25,257 nt of DNA from positions 1 through 25,257 of IMG/VR virus record IMGVR_UViG_3300031953_000094. One strand, given 5' to 3'. This stretch comes from a virus. Lineage: Duplodnaviria; Caudoviricetes. The notes beneath the pieces were generated by a model. The model saw only the letters and a list, made by a program, of their open reading frames with translations, was not told where the DNA came from and ran no database searches. Below, one piece after another: positions 912 through 16,388 of this stretch (position 1 is the stretch's first letter; each line of letters opens with the position of its first letter). The position numbers and the translations under genes are program-made.

Positions 912-2988
912 TCTCACTTTGCCCGCAGGCGTTCTGCCCGAGTTGACGGCGTATGAGTGGTTGCCGACGGGCGACGTTGTCACCAACCTGTTCACTAACC
1001 CGTCGTTTGAGACCGCTGACGGCACGGTCGAGGCGCGCCGGAACCATTGCCCGAATCCGGCGGTCAACGTCGACACGACGGGCTGGTATGGGAATGGCTC
1101 GGTGGTCACGAGGGTTGCCCAGGGTTCCGGTTGGGCGTTTCAGGTTGATGGGTCTGCTGCCTTTGTGGACTCTCCGATAGCGCACATCACGGTTGGTGAG
1201 TACTACTCGGGGTCTGCTGTCGTCTCGGGACCTGCTGGACGAACAGTCAGTGTACGCCTCAGTGGTTCTGTTGGAAGCACCGAAGATGTTGTCTTAACAG
1301 GCGCACCCCAAACAGTGGCCGTGGCTGCTGATGCGGCCACCTCTGACGGGGACCTTCGCCTATACGTGTGGCCCACCGCAGTTGGTGGCGCGTGGACCGC
1401 CGGTGAGTTGTTGACCGTCACCAGGGTGTTATTAGAAAAAGTGACCGGGACCGGCATCGCGGCAGGCGACTACTTCGACGGCACGACCTCACCCGACGCT
1501 GACCTCACGCCCGCGTGGACAGGTACAGCGAACGATTCCGACTCGATCCTGTCGTACGACAAAGTAACGGGCGTCACCACAACGCTCGGCTACCAGTCCG
1601 CACACTGGGCCACAGCAGGCACACACTCGCTCTACGTGCCCACGGGCGGTACCGCAACCATCGCACTCGCCGACGCGTCCACCGTCATTGCGACCGCCCG
1701 CAACTCAGGCCAAACCATCGCCGTCACAGGCGACAGCGCAACATCGACCACAACCGATGAGGCGCTGTCCGTCTACGGCACCACCACCGTCACGCTTGGC
1801 CCCGGATGGTGGGACATGTTGACCATCGTTGCGGGCGCATACATGGGCGCCCAATTCGACGGGTACACACCAAACACCCGCGCCGAGTTCACCGGATACG
1901 CCTACACGTGGACCGGCACCGGGGACGCCAGCACGTCCACACGCACCACCCTTGCCCGCGCGCTCATGGCACTCCCGTATGACGCACAGCTCACCGGCAA
2001 CCGCGCGCCGTACTACACGGTGGGCATCGTCGGTGGTGGCGACATCACCAGCATTGAGAGTGTCGACCTCACGTTCACGTCTAATGCCCGGATCAAGGGT
2101 TACGGCACGATCACGGTCGGCGACGTGGGGCAGGTTATCGACTGGGCAACGGTTCGTCTCGCACCCGTCTACCACCTCAACGCCACGACCTCATGGCCGC
2201 TGTCGCAGTATGTTGCCACATCCCCGCGCGAGTCCCGCAACGACGGTCACCGTTCATGGATTGTCGGCGTGCACGATCTCAGTTTCGCCCTGGACCGTCG
2301 CAAGATCACCACGACTTACGCGCTCGACACGGGCGCAGTTGTCACCGATGAAATCAAGGCGCTCCTGGTGCTGGCCGGCGAAACGAACACGGCGATCACG
2401 GACTCAACCAAGACGCTCCCGAGCCCGCGCGTGTGGCTACCCGGCACCGACTACCTGACCATTGCCAATGACTTGTGCGACGCCATCAATTATTCGTCGC
2501 TCACGGTCAACATGGACGGACAGTTTGAAGCTAAGCCAAGCATCCTGCCGTCCGACCGCCCGGAAACGTTCGCGTTCCTTGACGGCGAGAACTGTATCCA
2601 CTCGGGCAACTTTGACATTGAACGCGACCTGTCCAGCATCCCCGACCAGGTCATCGCCATTGCTCGCGGATCCGGTGACACCGAGGGCCTGGTGGGTTAC
2701 GCACCCGACGCTGGTTCCTATGCCTACTCGGAGACGGTCGAGACTGACGCCACCAGCCAGGCAGACATCGACGCCTTCGCCGCACGATCCCTCGCCGCCC
2801 GTAAAGGCTCCCCGCGCGTCGGCACCATCGAACACTTGCCGGTGCCGCTGACTCAAGGCCAGGTGGTGCGCTTCCGGTCAACGTCGTTTGAGCCGACCAT
2901 CGACGCCCTGTTCATCGTCACCCAAACAAAGATGCCGAAGAACTCTACTGGCAATGCCACATCAACGCTCAGAGAGGTGCTGTCTTGA
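904..2988 (+). CDS. Minor tail protein (carbohydrate-binding-like N-terminal region, baseplate/Tal-like C-terminal region)
   Basis: 694 aa, Thr/Gly/Ala-rich. NLFTNPSFE, NHCPNP and YFDG motifs are typical of actinophage minor tail proteins. Confidence 0.75.
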   Translation: MASLTLPAGVLPELTAYEWLPTGDVVTNLFTNPSFETADGTVEARRNHCPNPAVNVDTTGWYGNGSVVTRVAQGSGWAFQVDGSAAFVDSPIAHITVGEYYSGSAVVSGPAGRTVSVRLSGSVGSTEDVVLTGAPQTVAVAADAATSDGDLRLYVWPTAVGGAWTAGELLTVTRVLLEKVTGTGIAAGDYFDGTTSPDADLTPAWTGTANDSDSILSYDKVTGVTTTLGYQSAHWATAGTHSLYVPTGGTATIALADASTVIATARNSGQTIAVTGDSATSTTTDEALSVYGTTTVTLGPGWWDMLTIVAGAYMGAQFDGYTPNTRAEFTGYAYTWTGTGDASTSTRTTLARALMALPYDAQLTGNRAPYYTVGIVGGGDITSIESVDLTFTSNARIKGYGTITVGDVGQVIDWATVRLAPVYHLNATTSWPLSQYVATSPRESRNDGHRSWIVGVHDLSFALDRRKITTTYALDTGAVVTDEIKALLVLAGETNTAITDSTKTLPSPRVWLPGTDYLTIANDLCDAINYSSLTVNMDGQFEAKPSILPSDRPETFAFLDGENCIHSGNFDIERDLSSIPDQVIAIARGSGDTEGLVGYAPDAGSYAYSETVETDATSQADIDAFAARSLAARKGSPRVGTIEHLPVPLTQGQVVRFRSTSFEPTIDALFIVTQTKMPKNSTGNATSTLREVLS

Positions 2989-3509
2989 GCACACCCGAAA
3001 TTATCCGCGCGGTCGTCACCCAGGTGACCCCGCTCCGTGTTCGTATCGAAGGCCCCGACATGTCCGCCATGGGTGTCACGCCGGACAACTACGCCGGGAC
3101 GCTCGCCGTAGCAGACACCGTACTGGTGACGCGTTACCCACGTGGACAGATCGAAGTGCTGGCGCGTTTGGGTGGACCAGCCACAAGTGACACCGGCTGG
3201 CTTACCCCGGCTGGCTCCCCCGGCGGTTGGTATAGCAGCAACTCGGTACGCGTCAAGGACGGCTGGGCGACCATCAACATCTTCCTCACTGCGGCATCGA
3301 ACCGGGCGGGAGGAACCATCGTCGGCGTATTCCCCGCAGACTCGCGTTGGGCGCACACGGTCCCGGACGACATTTGGTTCGTCCTCGGTTCTAGTTCGAC
3401 GCCATTCCGTGGGCGGGTACTCAGTGATGGATCAATTAACGGTTATGGGGCTCCGGCAATGAACGCTGGCTCCACTATTACGGGCACCGTCACATACCCG
3501 GTCGGCTAA
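2985..3509 (+). CDS. Minor tail protein
   Basis: TTGA overlap with the previous gene. N-terminal VVTQVTPLRVRI OB-like segment and DTGW motif, as in tail-tip proteins. Confidence 0.65.
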   Translation: MSTPEIIRAVVTQVTPLRVRIEGPDMSAMGVTPDNYAGTLAVADTVLVTRYPRGQIEVLARLGGPATSDTGWLTPAGSPGGWYSSNSVRVKDGWATINIFLTAASNRAGGTIVGVFPADSRWAHTVPDDIWFVLGSSSTPFRGRVLSDGSINGYGAPAMNAGSTITGTVTYPVG

Positions 3510-3615: not shown

Positions 3616-4443
3616 ATGCGAGTCTTCCAACAGCTCGTCGCGCTTTGGCGTCGACTGACCCGCACCTACCGCGGTAAAAACAAGCTCGAGTGGATCACTG
3701 TCCACGAGACCGCCAACCCAAACGACGGTGCAGACGCCCAGGCGCACGCGAACCTACAGAGTAAGGGCAACGCCCGCCGCGCGTCATGGCATGAACAGGT
3801 TGACGACGGTGAAGCCATCCAGTCGTACCCAGACACGAACCGGTGCTGGCACGCAGGCGACGGCCGGGGCAACGGAAACCTGAACTCGTATGCCTTCGAG
3901 ATCTGCGTGAACCGTGACGGCGACTACATCAAAGCCGTCCACAACACTGCCGATCGTGTCCGCGCCAAGATGCGCGAGCGGAACATCCCAATCTCTCGCG
4001 TCGTCCAGCACAACCACTGGTCCGGCAAGAACTGCCCAACATTCCTGAGATCAGGATCTCAGGGCGTCGACTGGAACAACTTCCTCGCACTCGTCGCAGG
4101 CTCCCCCGTGTCCCTGCCTAAACCAGCACCAACCCCCACTACCCCAAGTTCTGGAAGGAAGGTCACCGTGAACGTCACGATGCGCCGTATCGACCTGTCT
4201 CACGCGGACGCCACCAGTGTCACCGGCGACGATGTCGGACAACTGCAAGGCCTCCTCATGGCCCACGGCTACGGACCCAAGGGTCTCGTCAACACGAAAA
4301 CGGGGCGTCCCGACAAGTTGGGCGGCACCCTCACCAAGGCGTGGTTCCGGCAGTTCCAGAAGGACCACCCCCACACCGGCACCAAGGGCAAGCCGGACGA
4401 CGTGTGCGGCCCCGCGTCGTGGACCGAACTGATCCAGAACTAG
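3616..4443 (+). CDS. Endolysin, N-acetylmuramoyl-L-alanine amidase (Amidase_2) with C-terminal peptidoglycan-binding domain
   Basis: Amidase motifs ITVHETAN, SWHEQVD, WHAGDG, FEIC and QHNHWSGKNCP. Pro/Thr linker. PG-binding motifs GDDVGQLQGLL...FRQFQ...DDVCGPASW. RBS GAAAGGA. Confidence 0.92.
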   Translation: MRVFQQLVALWRRLTRTYRGKNKLEWITVHETANPNDGADAQAHANLQSKGNARRASWHEQVDDGEAIQSYPDTNRCWHAGDGRGNGNLNSYAFEICVNRDGDYIKAVHNTADRVRAKMRERNIPISRVVQHNHWSGKNCPTFLRSGSQGVDWNNFLALVAGSPVSLPKPAPTPTTPSSGRKVTVNVTMRRIDLSHADATSVTGDDVGQLQGLLMAHGYGPKGLVNTKTGRPDKLGGTLTKAWFRQFQKDHPHTGTKGKPDDVCGPASWTELIQN

Positions 4444-4873: not shown

Positions 4874-5083
4874 ATGAATATCACCTGGCTCAAAGCCGCA
4901 GGAATGCGCGCACTCAAGACGTTTGCCCAGACCGCGGTCGCCCTCATCGGCACCGGGGCTGTCGGCCTGCTGGACGTGAGTTGGGTGGGCGTCGGCTCGG
5001 GCGCACTGCTCGCTGCCGTCCTGTCGATGCTCACCTCGATAGGCGGCATCCCCGAAGTGGAAGCGGCACCACCCCGCCCGTAA
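4874..5083 (+). CDS. Holin (phage r1t holin family)
   Basis: WLKAAGMRALKTFAQTAVALIG signature and two TM segments. RBS AGGAG before ATG 4874. Confidence 0.88.
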   Translation: MNITWLKAAGMRALKTFAQTAVALIGTGAVGLLDVSWVGVGSGALLAAVLSMLTSIGGIPEVEAAPPRP

Positions 5084-5133
5084 CCCCCTAGACGCGCGAC
5101 CCTCCACGCGCGCCACCTCCACTCGCGACGAAC

Positions 5134-5178
5134 GCCCCCCGCATCGGCCTCATATGGCTGGTGTGGGGGGCTACTTGT
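5134..5178 (+). terminator. Intrinsic terminator ending the late/lysis operon
   Basis: 16-bp stem GCCCCCCGCATCGGCC / GGCTGGTGTGGGGGGC with G-U pairs favouring the + strand, a 6-nt loop and a weak T tail. Confidence 0.7.
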
Positions 5179-5218
5179 CGTTGCTAGGGTGCGGGGGCGC
5201 TACCGTGGGCCCAACTAG

Positions 5219-5308
5219 CGTTTCCCCGCACTCGCGGGGATGATCCCAGTTTCGCTAGCACCGCGACGATCACGGCGTCGTACTCCCCGCATCTGCGGGG
5301 CTTTCGGG
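5219..5308 (+). CRISPR. Type I-E-like CRISPR mini-array: repeat, one spacer, degenerate repeat
   Basis: R1 5219-5247 CGTTTCCCCGCACTCGCGGGGATGATCCC. Spacer 5248-5279 (32 nt) AGTTTCGCTAGCACCGCGACGATCACGGCGTC. R2 5280-5308 GTACTCCCCGCATCTGCGGGGCTTTCGGG. The 61-nt period and CCCCGC-N4-GCGGGG hairpin are canonical for type I-E. Confidence 0.85.
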
Positions 5309-5851
5309 TCGCCAGGCGGCGATGGTGGAGCGCAGCCAGTACGGGGTGCGCTTATCAATGTGGCCGTCTGGCTCGGGGGCCTGGCCACGCGACACGTAGG
5401 AGCGGAAAGTCGTCGGCTGAACACCTGCGACACGTGCAGCCTGTGACGCGGTCAGCCGCTCACCGGCGAAAGTACCCAGCGTCGCAGCGCGGGCGATCAT
5501 CGCGGCTGCCATGACCTCGGGCGTATTTTCTGGCCCTAGTCCCGTGTACTCGCGGGGCTCGCGGTCATAGGCGAGGGTCCATGCCAGCGACCCGGCGCGC
5601 AACCTGTGGCCCGTCCTGTAGGACACACGGTAGGGCTCCGAGCCGGGGACGATGCGCCCAGGATTACCGCGATCCTCTCGCCCGGTCGTGATGACGAGAT
5701 CCGCAGTGTCGTCGCCGGTGGGCGTGTAGTCCCACAGGATGATCCAGGCGTCACGGTTGGCGTGGCTCGTGCCGTCCGCCAACTCGGCGAGTAGCGTCGC
5801 AGGGAAAGCGGTGCCCGGTGCGGTCCGGCGGATAGGTCCAGTGATTGTCAT
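5270..5851 (-). CDS. Protein with unknown N-terminal domain and C-terminal MerR/AlpA-like helix-turn-helix (Aca-like regulator candidate)
   Basis: C-terminal HTH LTASQAARVAGVQPTTFRSYVSRGQAPEPDGHIDKRTPYWLRSTIAAW. RBS AGGAGAG before ATG 5851. Confidence 0.8.
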   Translation of the reverse strand: MTITGPIRRTAPGTAFPATLLAELADGTSHANRDAWIILWDYTPTGDDTADLVITTGREDRGNPGRIVPGSEPYRVSYRTGHRLRAGSLAWTLAYDREPREYTGLGPENTPEVMAAAMIARAATLGTFAGERLTASQAARVAGVQPTTFRSYVSRGQAPEPDGHIDKRTPYWLRSTIAAWRPESPADAGSTTP

Positions 5852-5862
5852 GATGCTCTCTC

Positions 5863-6171
5863 CTAGAGGTAGGTGCCGACGTCGGCACTGCTGCTGTAGT
5901 GGCCGCATGAGTAGCAACGACCGTGGCAATCGTGGTCGTGGATGGTGCAGGGTCGCACGACGGTGGGGGTGGTGTCGCGACGGTCGAGGATATCGATAGC
6001 GGCACGCATGACCGCGTGGGACTGGGAGGCGATAGCCAGCGCCTCGGGTGAGTGGTAGCGACCCATGTCCGTGCCGAGGTAGTCGTGATTGTGTTTGATG
6101 AGTGCGCGAAGCTGCTCGCTGGTGGCTGCCTGCATCTTCTGTGCGAATTCCGTGGTGATCGTGGCGGTCAC
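5863..6171 (-). CDS. Small hypothetical protein with C-terminal Cys/His cluster (anti-defence candidate)
   Basis: GGAGG RBS 8 nt before GTG 6171. First gene behind a sigma70-type promoter. Contains CTIHDHDCHGRCYSCGH. Confidence 0.7.
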   Translation of the reverse strand: MTATITTEFAQKMQAATSEQLRALIKHNHDYLGTDMGRYHSPEALAIASQSHAVMRAAIDILDRRDTTPTVVRPCTIHDHDCHGRCYSCGHYSSSADVGTYL

Positions 6172-6201
6172 GGTGACCACCTCCTCTCTGTCTATGTCTC
6201 T

Positions 6202-6229
6202 ATCTTACATCGCTAGCGCTGTAATGCAA
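6202..6229 (-). promoter_or_regulatory. SigA-type promoter overlapped by a palindromic operator
   Basis: Minus strand TTGCAT-N16-TAAGAT. A 20-bp palindrome TTACATCGCTAGCGCTGTAA (6205-6224, one mismatched pair) spans the spacer. Confidence 0.7.
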
Positions 6230-6300
6230 GTCGAGATAGCCCCAACCAGGTCACAGTTTGGTAACGGGGCCGGTCGCACCACCGGCACGCGCGACACTAA

Positions 6301-6345
6301 CGCCCCCGCTCGCTGACTTCGGTCGGTGAGTGGGGGCGATTCTCT
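6301..6345 (+). terminator. Intrinsic terminator with a UUCG tetraloop
   Basis: 17-bp stem CGCCCCCGCTCGCTGAC-TTCG-GTCGGTGAGTGGGGGCG followed by ATTCTCT. Confidence 0.75.
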
Positions 6346-6439: not shown

Positions 6440-6865
6440 ATGACAAGCCAGCGGACGTGTTACTCATGCAAAGAGGTAAGGCCGCTCTCGATGTTCTACA
6501 TAGAGGCAGAGAAGCGGCGCGCCGCTACGTTGGGGCGCACGAGCATCCAACACATGTGCAGACTTTGCAGCAGAGAAGTTGCGGTTAAGCGCATGGCGCC
6601 ACGACGGGCAATCATTGACGAAGCGAGGGCCGTGGGCTGCGCAGATTGCGGCGTGGTGAACCTGGCGCACCCAGAGATATTCGACTTCGACCACTTGCCC
6701 GGACACGTCAAACTGGGAAGCGTCACGGCATTTCTGACCAAGGGTTCGATTGATGACCTGCGCGCCGAAATCGCCAAGTGCGAGGTGGTGTGCTCTAACT
6801 GCCACAGAATCCGCACCAAGTCACGCGAGGCCGCGACGTTCGGTGTTAGCAGGGTGGTGATCTAG
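6440..6865 (+). CDS. HNH endonuclease with N-terminal zinc finger
   Basis: CYSC...CRLC, GCADCG, FDFDH and KCEVVCSNCHRIRT motifs. Confidence 0.85.
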   Translation: MTSQRTCYSCKEVRPLSMFYIEAEKRRAATLGRTSIQHMCRLCSREVAVKRMAPRRAIIDEARAVGCADCGVVNLAHPEIFDFDHLPGHVKLGSVTAFLTKGSIDDLRAEIAKCEVVCSNCHRIRTKSREAATFGVSRVVI

Positions 6866-7653
6866 TGGCCGACCTTCTCACAGATGAGTACCTAGCGTGG
6901 TGCCGAAATCAGCGCATCACGCCGAACACAGTCACCAGCCGACGCCGCGTACTCAAGTCGCTCGGCAACGCCGGGGTTGCCACCCGCGAAGAGGTTGAAG
7001 CTTGGTGGAACGAGCGCGCCCACCTCACGGCTGGCACCAGATCCAATGACCTGGCGAACCTGCGCACGTTCTTCAAGTGGTGCAGGCGATGGGAACACCG
7101 CGACGACGACCCCACCCTGCGCCTCGACTCCCCCAAGGTCTCACGCGGACTCCCACGACCACTGAGCAAGCCCGACCTACTGCGACTACTCGACGTGCTT
7201 GGACCCGACCTGCGCCGCTCCGTATGCCTGGGCGCCTATGCCGGGCTGCGTGTATCCGAAGCGGCGGCACTGCGCTGGGACGACATCGACCTAGAGATCA
7301 ACACCATGCGCATCAACGACTCCAAGGGCGGCAAGTCCCGACTCGTCAAGGTGTCACCGCTGTTGATCGACGAACTACTACCACGGGCCGACGGGAACGT
7401 GGTCACCGCTGGCGAACGGCCATACAGTGCCGCGAACCTACAGCGCAAGATCAACCGGGCCATCAAGGCGGCAGGCGTGACTGCCACCTTCCACCAACTG
7501 CGCCACCGTTACGGCACCGTTGCCTACCAAGCCACGGGCGACCTGCTCGCGGTCGGTCGGCAGATGGGGCACTCGTCACCAGTCACCACGGCCATCTATG
7601 CACAAGCGTCTGATGACATCACGGCCAAGATCGCAGCGGCGGTGTTGCGCTAG
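6865..7653 (+). CDS. Tyrosine recombinase (XerC/D-like, no arm-binding domain); second recombinase
   Basis: Full catalytic set: AGLRVSE (R), SKGGK (K), HQLRH, MGHSS, TAIY (Y). 262 aa; TAGTG coupling to the HNH gene. Confidence 0.92.
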   Translation: MADLLTDEYLAWCRNQRITPNTVTSRRRVLKSLGNAGVATREEVEAWWNERAHLTAGTRSNDLANLRTFFKWCRRWEHRDDDPTLRLDSPKVSRGLPRPLSKPDLLRLLDVLGPDLRRSVCLGAYAGLRVSEAAALRWDDIDLEINTMRINDSKGGKSRLVKVSPLLIDELLPRADGNVVTAGERPYSAANLQRKINRAIKAAGVTATFHQLRHRYGTVAYQATGDLLAVGRQMGHSSPVTTAIYAQASDDITAKIAAAVLR

Positions 7654-8510
7654 GCGGCTGCCTGGACAACCGCACGTAGCGCGTCCACCGGTGTCTCGAC
7701 ATAGCGCATTGTCGTCTCAGGCTTCGAGTGCCCCAGCACCTTGCCGAGCGCCAGCACGTCGGGACTTGCGGCATAGGAGCGCGTCGCAAAGGCGTGGCGC
7801 AACTGGTGACCAGTCCAGTCGCCAGGCAGGGCGCGGGCCATGAGCTTGGAGACCCATTGCGCCGACACGTGACCGTCCAGCGAACCAGGGAACACGTAGC
7901 CGCGAGCGCCGGTGATTGCGTCCTGTAGTTCCGAGTTAAGGATTGGAACCAGGCGCATCTTGCCGCCCTTGCCGTCGACGTAGAGTATGTCGCCGATGAG
8001 ATCGGCTGTGCGCACGGCCGCTATCTCGCCGCAACGCAGGCCGGCGTATCGGGCGAGCATGAGCATCAGCCGCACTGGTCGAGATGTACCGAATACCGCT
8101 TCCTGGTAGACGCGTTCGGGAGTAGGGCGCGGCACGCCGGGCGGCACTGTGATGGGCATGAGGTCTACGGCCGGGGAGCGCTCCATCTCGTCGACAGAAA
8201 CGCACCAACGGTAGAACCCCACGGCGACCGTGCGCGCGGACTTGCGTGACTCGGGCCCCCAGTTGGCATTGGCGAGCCACGACTCGAGGTCGCGTCGGGC
8301 GACGGCCAGGGGGTCGGGTTGGGTGCGTGCCAGGAGTTGGAGGTAGTGACCATGCAGGCGGACAGTCTTGGGCCTACGGCCAGCACCGCGCATAGCGGTC
8401 AAATACCCATCCATTAATCGGATCCACATCGTTGTAGCCCCCCAGCCGTCAGCCTCACGGCTTTCATTGCCTATCGGGTGACTACCAGGGAACTTTAGGA
8501 TGTCGCCCAT
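7650..8510 (-). CDS. int: Phage integrase (tyrosine, arm-less type) with C-terminal ssrA-like degron
   Basis: AGLRCGE, GKGGK, HQLRH, LGHSK and TMRY motifs. Ends in QAAA. Co-oriented with the repressor that contains attP. Confidence 0.93.
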   Translation of the reverse strand: MGDILKFPGSHPIGNESREADGWGATTMWIRLMDGYLTAMRGAGRRPKTVRLHGHYLQLLARTQPDPLAVARRDLESWLANANWGPESRKSARTVAVGFYRWCVSVDEMERSPAVDLMPITVPPGVPRPTPERVYQEAVFGTSRPVRLMLMLARYAGLRCGEIAAVRTADLIGDILYVDGKGGKMRLVPILNSELQDAITGARGYVFPGSLDGHVSAQWVSKLMARALPGDWTGHQLRHAFATRSYAASPDVLALGKVLGHSKPETTMRYVETPVDALRAVVQAAA

Positions 8511-15727: not shown

Positions 15728-15906
15728 ACCCACCATGCCCAACCTGCACCCACGTGCACGACCCGTCATGGGTCCGCGCTCAGGGACGCTTCCACGCAAC
15801 CGGAACCGTCGGCTACCGGGCCGCAACACCTGACGCACCGTTACGCGCCACCCATGCCGAGGCTGAGGCCGACGCGTGTGCCGCTATGGCTGGAGGTGCG
15901 GCGTGA
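15724..15906 (+). CDS. Hypothetical protein
   Basis: GAAAGG RBS; ATGA overlap. Confidence 0.55.
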   Translation: MNPPCPTCTHVHDPSWVRAQGRFHATGTVGYRAATPDAPLRATHAEAEADACAAMAGGAA

Positions 15907-16388
15907 AGTACTTGCCCCCGGTACTTGACCCCGCGTCTGCCGCCCGAATGATGTGGTTCGACAAGGCGGATCCACGCGCCATGTTCGGCGACATTCGCGA
16001 TGAGGGTGACCTAGTCGCATGCGACGGCCGCACTGTTCGCATTGTCCCCGACCAACTCATGGACTTCCGCGACCTGCCGTTCCCAGACGATTCATTCTGG
16101 CACGTGGTACTCGACCCGCCACACCTCAATCGGCTCGGTAAGGACTCGTTCATGGCGCAGAAGTACGGGCGACTCACTGCTACCTGGAAGGACGACCTCG
16201 AGGCCGGATTCGCCGAATGCTTCCGAGTACTCAGGCCCGGAGGCACCCTCATCTTCAAATGGAACGAAGCACAGATCCCGATCGCCGACGTGCTCGCACT
16301 GACACCCGAACTCCCCCTCTACGGACACCGGTCTGGACGGCTCTCAAAGACGCACTGGATCTCGTTCATTAAGGAGCCTGCCTTATGA
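15903..16388 (+). CDS. Class I SAM-dependent (probably DNA amino-) methyltransferase
   Basis: VLDPASAARMMWFDK, DFRDLPFPDDSF, LDPPH and ECFRVLRPGGTLIFKW motifs. Confidence 0.85.
   Translation: MKYLPPVLDPASAARMMWFDKADPRAMFGDIRDEGDLVACDGRTVRIVPDQLMDFRDLPFPDDSFWHVVLDPPHLNRLGKDSFMAQKYGRLTATWKDDLEAGFAECFRVLRPGGTLIFKWNEAQIPIADVLALTPELPLYGHRSGRLSKTHWISFIKEPAL

Follow-up and report, generated by a model that had tools for sequence, protein, structure and literature searches.

The fragment of IMG/VR virus record IMGVR_UViG_3300031953_000094 analysed here (25,257 nucleotides (nt); hereafter the window) contains a short leftward operon that lies directly against a mini-array of type I-E CRISPR repeats. 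This raises the question of whether operon and array work together against host immunity, as a first-pass annotation had proposed in calling the operon a candidate anti-CRISPR (Acr) locus with an Acr-associated (Aca) regulator, or whether the two are simply neighbours. The operon comprises two open reading frames (ORFs) on the (-) strand, encoding proteins of 102 amino acids (aa; 5863-6171) and 193 aa (5270-5851), and both were present as annotated. The reading that we favour, tentatively and a little short of even confidence, is that this is an Aca-like autoregulated cassette, in which a cargo domain, the first gene or both work with guides encoded by the phage to counter the host's type I-E immunity.

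The array is read on the (+) strand. Repeat 1 (R1; 5219-5247) has an intact 8-nt handle and a hairpin. Its score on a profile of type I-E repeats taken from other loci is 31.6 bits, whereas the best of 100 shuffled windows reached 11.1 bits. It is followed by a 32-nt spacer (5248-5279), which holds the antisense stop codon of the 193-aa gene, and by repeat 2 (R2; 5280-5308), which lies inside the coding 3' end of that gene and is degenerate at its own 3' end. R2 alone scored 3.4 bits, yet its hairpin is intact at the canonical 61-nt period. The 29-nt repeat, hairpin, 8-nt handle and canonical period that mark a type I-E mini-array are thus all found here, albeit with a degenerate R2, which confirms the repeat-spacer-repeat unit reported beside the cassette. 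An array on the (-) strand was rejected (-5 to -8 bits versus 31.6). Rfam returned nothing, and the locus has no listed RNA holder. Running antisense to the array, the 193-aa gene overlaps R2 and 10 nt of the spacer with its final 13 codons, counting the stop. Pointing toward the operon, the array would need its own promoter, for which a TAnnnT box at 5201-5206 is a weak candidate.

As judged from profile matches and a predicted structure (predicted local distance difference test score, pLDDT, 83), the 193-aa protein is a fusion of a ~125-aa beta-barrel-plus-helix domain to a MerR/Xis-like winged helix-turn-helix (HTH). Its C-terminal 60 residues correspond to phrog_597 (E 6e-12), and the best matches to the HTH model were RdfS, Xis, TipAL and BldC (MerR-type) folds, with modest Z scores of 4.7-5.7, the solved domains that match best (RdfS, Xis and MerR-type) lying at 5.2-5.7. 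The C-terminal HTH expected from the sequence is therefore borne out by the family match, the winged-HTH model and the fold search. The profile search and structure prediction that had been suggested for this protein gave a name to the HTH but left the N-terminal domain without a known fold. That domain is modelled as a beta barrel with one helix, and its best matches (MazF, ToxN, ribosomal and Tudor-type barrels; Z ≤4.5) are too weak to name it; fold searches with an earlier, poorer model gave nothing at E 0.001 or Z 5.

The predicted cassette promoter, TTGCAT-N16-TAAGAT (6202-6229, (-) strand), places TTGCAT at 6229-6224 and TAAGAT at 6207-6202, with a spacing of 16 nt. The spacer holds a palindrome (6205-6224; operator consensus TACAGCG-N2-4-CGCTGTA) that pairs at nine of ten positions and overlaps both boxes. 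Since the palindrome covers both boxes, repression by occlusion is predicted. Promoter and palindrome are thus present as first described, though the boxes match only 7/12 consensus positions, and a generic sigma-70 scan with a threshold of 9 did not list them. Judged by the window alone the promoter is a weak match, and its support comes from conservation in relatives: the same layout with the operator recurs in the phage locus L044 (see below), in the actinophages REQ2 and Finkle, where promoter and palindrome are almost the same as in the window, and in other loci of the HTH family.

This conservation was surveyed across 70 viral loci grouped into 24 HTH clusters, allowing up to four mismatches to the operator between TTG and TAnnnT boxes. 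The operator was found between promoter boxes in 10 of the 24 clusters, as against 2 of 240 shuffles, and in 8 of 22 once the window and the REQ2-like cluster, from which it had been defined, were removed. Several further clusters with a recognisable palindrome at shifted spacing scored low in the scan and were left uncounted. Among 21 non-family loci the operator occurred twice, both times in loci retrieved by the operator pattern itself. Conversely, scans with the operator alone arrived at the HTH gene in 3/5 and 5/6 matches, the window's own phage being counted each time, and the window and G001 each contain a single such site. Three loci with the pattern but no HTH (L041, L042 and L117) were treated as chance. 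The joint conservation of operator and HTH family supports the proposed autoregulation through the palindrome, and the 193-aa protein very probably binds this site and represses its own promoter. An operator-like palindrome was also seen close to HTH genes carried by a Cryobacterium plasmid; in a number of phage loci of the same set (plasmid and phage loci together: L114, L046, L047, L058, L083, L095, L100 and L107) the palindrome stands at promoters that point away from the HTH gene or come after it. The positions of these palindromes suggest control of neighbouring operons.

Actinophages commonly carry stand-alone relatives of the HTH, with 87 records matched at a permissive E of 10. In five of the seven annotated records that were opened, the HTH gene lay in a short leftward operon between lysis or tail genes and the integrase. 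Regulators of this HTH family are widespread and go with small-gene cargo of varied kinds, in most cases with no array. Relatives of only 70-80 aa accompany the same operator, and therefore the N-terminal domain of the 193-aa protein is likely dispensable for operator control and free to be cargo.

Proteins with the N-terminal domain make up a small family of their own: P0003, P0004, the L044 protein and six of the nine matches of an exhaustive profile search. The nine relatives of the 193-aa protein are 181-248 aa long, each with a C-terminal extension: in six it is a phrog_597-type HTH, in P0009 it is a resolvase-like HTH (a weak match, E 5e-4), and in P0012 and P0015 it is HTH-like by eye only. 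No stand-alone N-terminal domain was recovered in the exhaustive profile search, and tblastn of P0001, P0010 and P0015 in annotated collections gave no match. The other three of the nine search matches (P0011, P0013 and P0014) were dropped on account of short matches in several stretches, P0013 being a repetitive protein, and L005 was rejected as its match falls in a shadow frame of another gene.

The link between array and fused protein could be examined in one independent phage. L044 lies in a 55-kb phage, estimated to be complete, that shares only 3 of the 46 window ORFs and encodes a 192-aa full-length homolog of the 193-aa protein (36% identity, E 1.5e-25). Its cassette occupies the same slot behind lysis genes, with a promoter TTGATA-17-TATAGT and the same operator. 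On the operon strand, 12 nt after the stop codon of the homolog, begins an array of four I-E-like repeats with an exact 50-nt period and three 21-nt spacers; the two middle repeats scored 14.3 and 12.1 bits, and the outer two are degenerate, with negative scores. This array could be co-transcribed with the cassette under the operator. Because L044 was found through its HTH and not through its repeats, it is a fair test of the CRISPR link. Across the 24 clusters, I-E repeat scores exceeded the shuffle maximum in two, and these are the very two that carry the N-terminal domain. In the remaining 22 clusters and in 11 extra loci no score reached it (best 3.2 bits), many of these loci extending less than 3 kb per side. 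With L044 as the sole test, this amounts to 1/1 versus 0/22 (p ~0.04). In the two cases that can be read, the array accompanies the fused subfamily, but in general neither the regulator family nor viral I-E arrays require the other. The anticipated association of homologs with CRISPR repeats thus held in the sole independent case. Loci L001-L004, L014, L039, L043 and L119 belong to the same phage as the window (L001 at 100% identity, the rest on that contig or on one as long as the window) and lend no independent support. Repeats at L060 and L061 proved to be an inverted-repeat structure and not CRISPR.

The first slot of the operon is variable. In the window it holds the 102-aa orphan, which starts with GTG 8 nt downstream of an AGGAGG, is rich in Cys and His at its C-terminus and has an isoelectric point (pI) of about 6.5. 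Sequence searches, including tblastn in annotated collections, found no homolog of it, and the ESM Atlas gave no usable match for either protein of the cassette. A partial variant was nonetheless recovered from a different study, as a 246-nt contig that spans the junction of the two genes at ~93% identity. Since seven of nine changes in the 193-aa gene (codons 6-19) and two of four in the 102-aa gene are synonymous, both cassette genes look coding. The L044 counterpart (2162-2572) is unrelated to the 102-aa protein: it is 136 aa long, with a pI of 4.05 and 30 D/E versus 8 K/R residues. Strong acidity is a trait common among Acrs. As separate observations, the C-terminal Cys/His cluster of the 102-aa protein (5863-5960, (-) strand) may bind metal, and the acidic L044 protein has a homolog in L034 (5697-6080; Finkle gp31; 36%, E 9e-5), a candidate anti-defence protein whose gene stands first in a different HTH operon of Gordonia phage Finkle.

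In the favoured scheme the cassette is a self-contained accessory unit of the phage, and the 193-aa protein would bind the promoter palindrome through its winged HTH and repress its own two-gene operon. By analogy with acr-aca operons, a burst of expression would be expected on entry, before the repressor accumulates. Host Cas6 would process the mini-array RNA and host Cascade would be loaded with it, while the N-terminal domain and/or the exchangeable first gene would act against host type I-E CRISPR-Cas alongside the array guide RNA. PADLOC, which includes Cas models, matched no Cas protein among 94 of the 99 called ORFs of the two phages, the window being a fragment and an identical protein being on record on a 34.6-kb contig; the arrays would therefore need host Cas proteins. 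The suggestion that Cascade or Cas3 is the specific target found no backing, as nothing pointed to either. That a block of Cas3 turns the phage guide into a repression tool remains speculation, which fits the full-length spacer but gained no evidence in this analysis. Of the candidate acr-aca locus as first proposed, the Aca-like control gained support and the array link held in L044, but there was no Acr homolog or fold match and no spacer target.

A number of results weigh against an anti-CRISPR role. Pfam, PHROGs, NCBIfam, PADLOC and PDB sequence and fold searches, all general libraries and none of them Acr-dedicated, yielded no Acr match. New Acrs are usually without homologs. The 102-aa protein, at pI 6.45, is not acidic, and the cargo in REQ2 and Finkle consists of small membrane proteins. 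For the window spacer, no exact match to a 24-nt part was found in viral contigs outside the phage itself, and BLAST against phages and plasmids gave chance-level matches only (best E 0.7-0.9); none of the four spacers of the window and L044 has a seed match in the window or in G001. A guide that represses the cassette's own promoter was considered and rejected, the 8-nt overlap between spacer and operator core lying outside the seed on both strands. Only 2 of the 10 members of the N-terminal-domain family have a readable genomic context, and 22 of the 24 regulator clusters show no I-E repeat in flanks of up to 3 kb. The two arrays also differ from each other, that of the window being antisense to the operon with one 32-nt spacer and that of L044 co-oriented with three 21-nt spacers, and their main repeats share only 18-20 of 29 bases. 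Because orientation, spacers and repeats differ in this way, a single conserved mechanism is not evident. Finally, 11 other viral I-E repeat loci carry neither domain of the 193-aa protein, as judged from PHROGs on 70 of 107 called ORFs and from profiles on all six frames, and three of these 11 adjoin lysis genes.

These results bear on the strongest alternative, which we consider a real possibility though a less probable one: the operon is an ordinary autoregulated accessory cassette, and the mini-array is an independent neighbour in the same slot behind lysis genes that works alone, for example against rival phages. Such an arrangement would suit a regulator-operator pair that is widespread, has varied cargo and lacks arrays in all but two clusters, as well as arrays that disagree in orientation, repeat and spacer length. 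It would also suit the antisense overlap with the 3' end of the 193-aa gene, as might arise by later insertion. The presence of lysis genes beside three of the 11 other arrays likewise implies that the slot itself may attract arrays. What it does not readily accommodate is that both readable domain-bearing members touch an array (by overlap in the window, at 12 nt in L044) in otherwise unrelated phages, while no member without the domain does so, and that I-E repeats are rare in the viral collection. The pattern used to count the latter was narrow and missed L044; it found 25 stretches on 13 contigs, of which 13 stretches lie on one 437-kb contig and one is the window itself. Among viral I-E loci, L006 (~2950-3130) and L015 (~2950-3140) hold arrays directly beside lysis genes, with near-identical spacers of 20-21 nt; both resemble Cracr arrays. 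L009 and L016 hold further mini-arrays with spacers of ~21 nt among unknown small genes.

It is improbable, though less easily set aside than the last alternative below, that the locus is an anti-defence island in which the proteins counter restriction, BREX or similar systems, for instance through DNA mimicry by the first-slot protein, and cluster with anti-CRISPR RNA with no action on Cas. The acidic first gene of L044 and the position of its homolog at the head of another HTH operon in phage Finkle are in keeping with this, as is the prediction in PMC13551039 that Aca-regulated operons contain other anti-defence genes. No known anti-defence protein was matched in the scanned libraries, however, and the tracking of the N-terminal domain by arrays would be left unexplained. 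A prophage defence or addiction module, with a MazF/ToxN-like N-terminal RNase restrained both by autoregulation and by repeat RNA and a guide aimed at rival phages, is very unlikely. In its favour, the modelled domain aligns weakly to MazF-family and ToxN structures over 88-103 residues (7bye, Z 4.5, root-mean-square deviation (rmsd) 4.5; 6kys, Z 4.4, rmsd 3.8; 4rmo, Z 4.0, rmsd 4.6); against it, these Z scores are all below 5 and tied with mitoribosomal, BAH and Tudor barrels, with 6-9% identity and no sequence match to toxin families.

The favoured reading, of a cassette that acts with its array against type I-E immunity, was then set against known systems. One precedent is acrIF24, which is tightly linked to Cas-repressing mini-arrays (10.1101/2024.10.29.618823). 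As with acrIF24 and the I-F Cracr arrays (10.1101/2024.10.29.618823; 10.1101/2023.03.03.530964), a phage gene is here tied to a mini-array of host type with no cas genes. Unlike those, the cassette has type I-E repeats and a MerR/Xis-like HTH, and the window spacer has the full 32 nt and runs antisense to the operon, with no cas-promoter target identified. Cracrs are Cas/CreT-repressing RNAs, often with a shortened spacer, the seed of which is expected to match a PAM-flanked promoter of host cas or creT. AcrIF24 also carries a C-terminal autoregulatory HTH. PDB searches gave no sequence or fold match between AcrIF24 and the cassette. The tested I-E Cracr array is described as having spacers of 24 and 21 nt (10.1101/2024.10.29.618823), and the 21-nt spacer length of L044 equals one of these. 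By analogy with the I-E Cracrs, the short L044 spacers would suit a guide that represses without cutting (10.1101/2024.10.29.618823). Taken by this analogy, the domain-fused branch of a large phage family plausibly works with mini-arrays much as acrIF24 does with Cracr RNAs.

Likewise, the cassette resembles the acr-aca operons (Aca1-Aca14; PMC13551039) in its small genes, inverted-repeat promoter, co-encoded HTH, variable cargo slot and position in an accessory region. Two hallmarks of such operons, a co-encoded HTH regulator and a promoter inverted repeat conserved with it, are found. In contrast to them, the cassette is without a known acr, which is what defines an Aca; its regulator is fused to an extra domain and belongs to the MerR/Xis class of winged HTH. 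As no acr has been shown, the cassette cannot be filed as an acr-aca operon, though its control would work like that of one. Its HTH subfamily, the operator between the boxes and a leftward slot flanked by the integrase and by lysis or tail genes are shared with the phrog_597 actinophage cassettes (REQ2 orf31, Finkle gp37 and the R. equi-type prophage loci L038 and L040), which differ in having a stand-alone HTH of 70-95 aa, often small membrane-protein cargo, and no I-E repeats nearby. The array itself is like the virus-borne mini-arrays of inter-virus conflict (PMC6858448) in being a repeat-spacer-repeat unit without cas genes; no protospacer was found here. Racrs are solitary repeats (PMC10651486), while the unit of the window has two. 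The window spacer, at the canonical 32 nt, could guide cutting of a rival phage or simply titrate Cascade.

A more specific proposal, which we regard as unlikely but worth stating, is that the N-terminal domain founds a new self-regulating anti-CRISPR family against actinobacterial type I-E systems, the I-E counterpart of AcrIF24, in which an inhibitor is fused to its own repressor, the HTH being of two or more interchangeable types, and is coupled to phage guides that redirect host Cascade. If so, the conserved operator and HTH would provide a new marker of Aca type by which anti-defence genes could be traced throughout the actinophages. Such a module was not found described in an incomplete literature search on anti-CRISPR in actinobacterial type I-E systems. 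Should the CRISPR link hold, the locus would offer a concrete protein-plus-RNA candidate and, in the operator, a simple DNA marker for finding more; should it fail, a binding site would still be predicted for a family of actinophage 'hypothetical HTH' proteins that is very common.

The surrounding sequence is that of a temperate phage genome with a GC content of ~63%, and this composition, together with the relatives of the cassette HTH, suggests that the host is likely an actinobacterium. Ahead of the cassette come tail genes, the gene for an amidase endolysin (3616-4443) and that for a holin, which ends at 5083. Beyond it lie an HNH gene, two tyrosine recombinases, a repressor and early genes. 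Two hairpins are predicted at its borders. One, at 5134-5171 between lysis genes and cassette, is a likely terminator that has no T-run and was not listed by the generic scan; the other, at 6301-6338, is a likely terminator insulating the cassette promoter. In four of four brine runs, a co-occurring element (5106-5139 plus 6299-6338) fuses sequence flanking the first hairpin on its left to the point where the second hairpin begins, and in brine run X7 the fused element continues with sequence resembling 5174-5200. These junctions hint that the cassette sits between interchangeable terminators, the matched sides being only 25-40 nt long. Farther along, the two tyrosine recombinase genes (6865-7653, (+) strand; 7650-8510, (-) strand; Pfam Phage_integrase) converge with overlapping stops, and a short DNA methyltransferase-like gene lies at 15903-16388 on the (+) strand (PADLOC MTase_II, E 4e-60).
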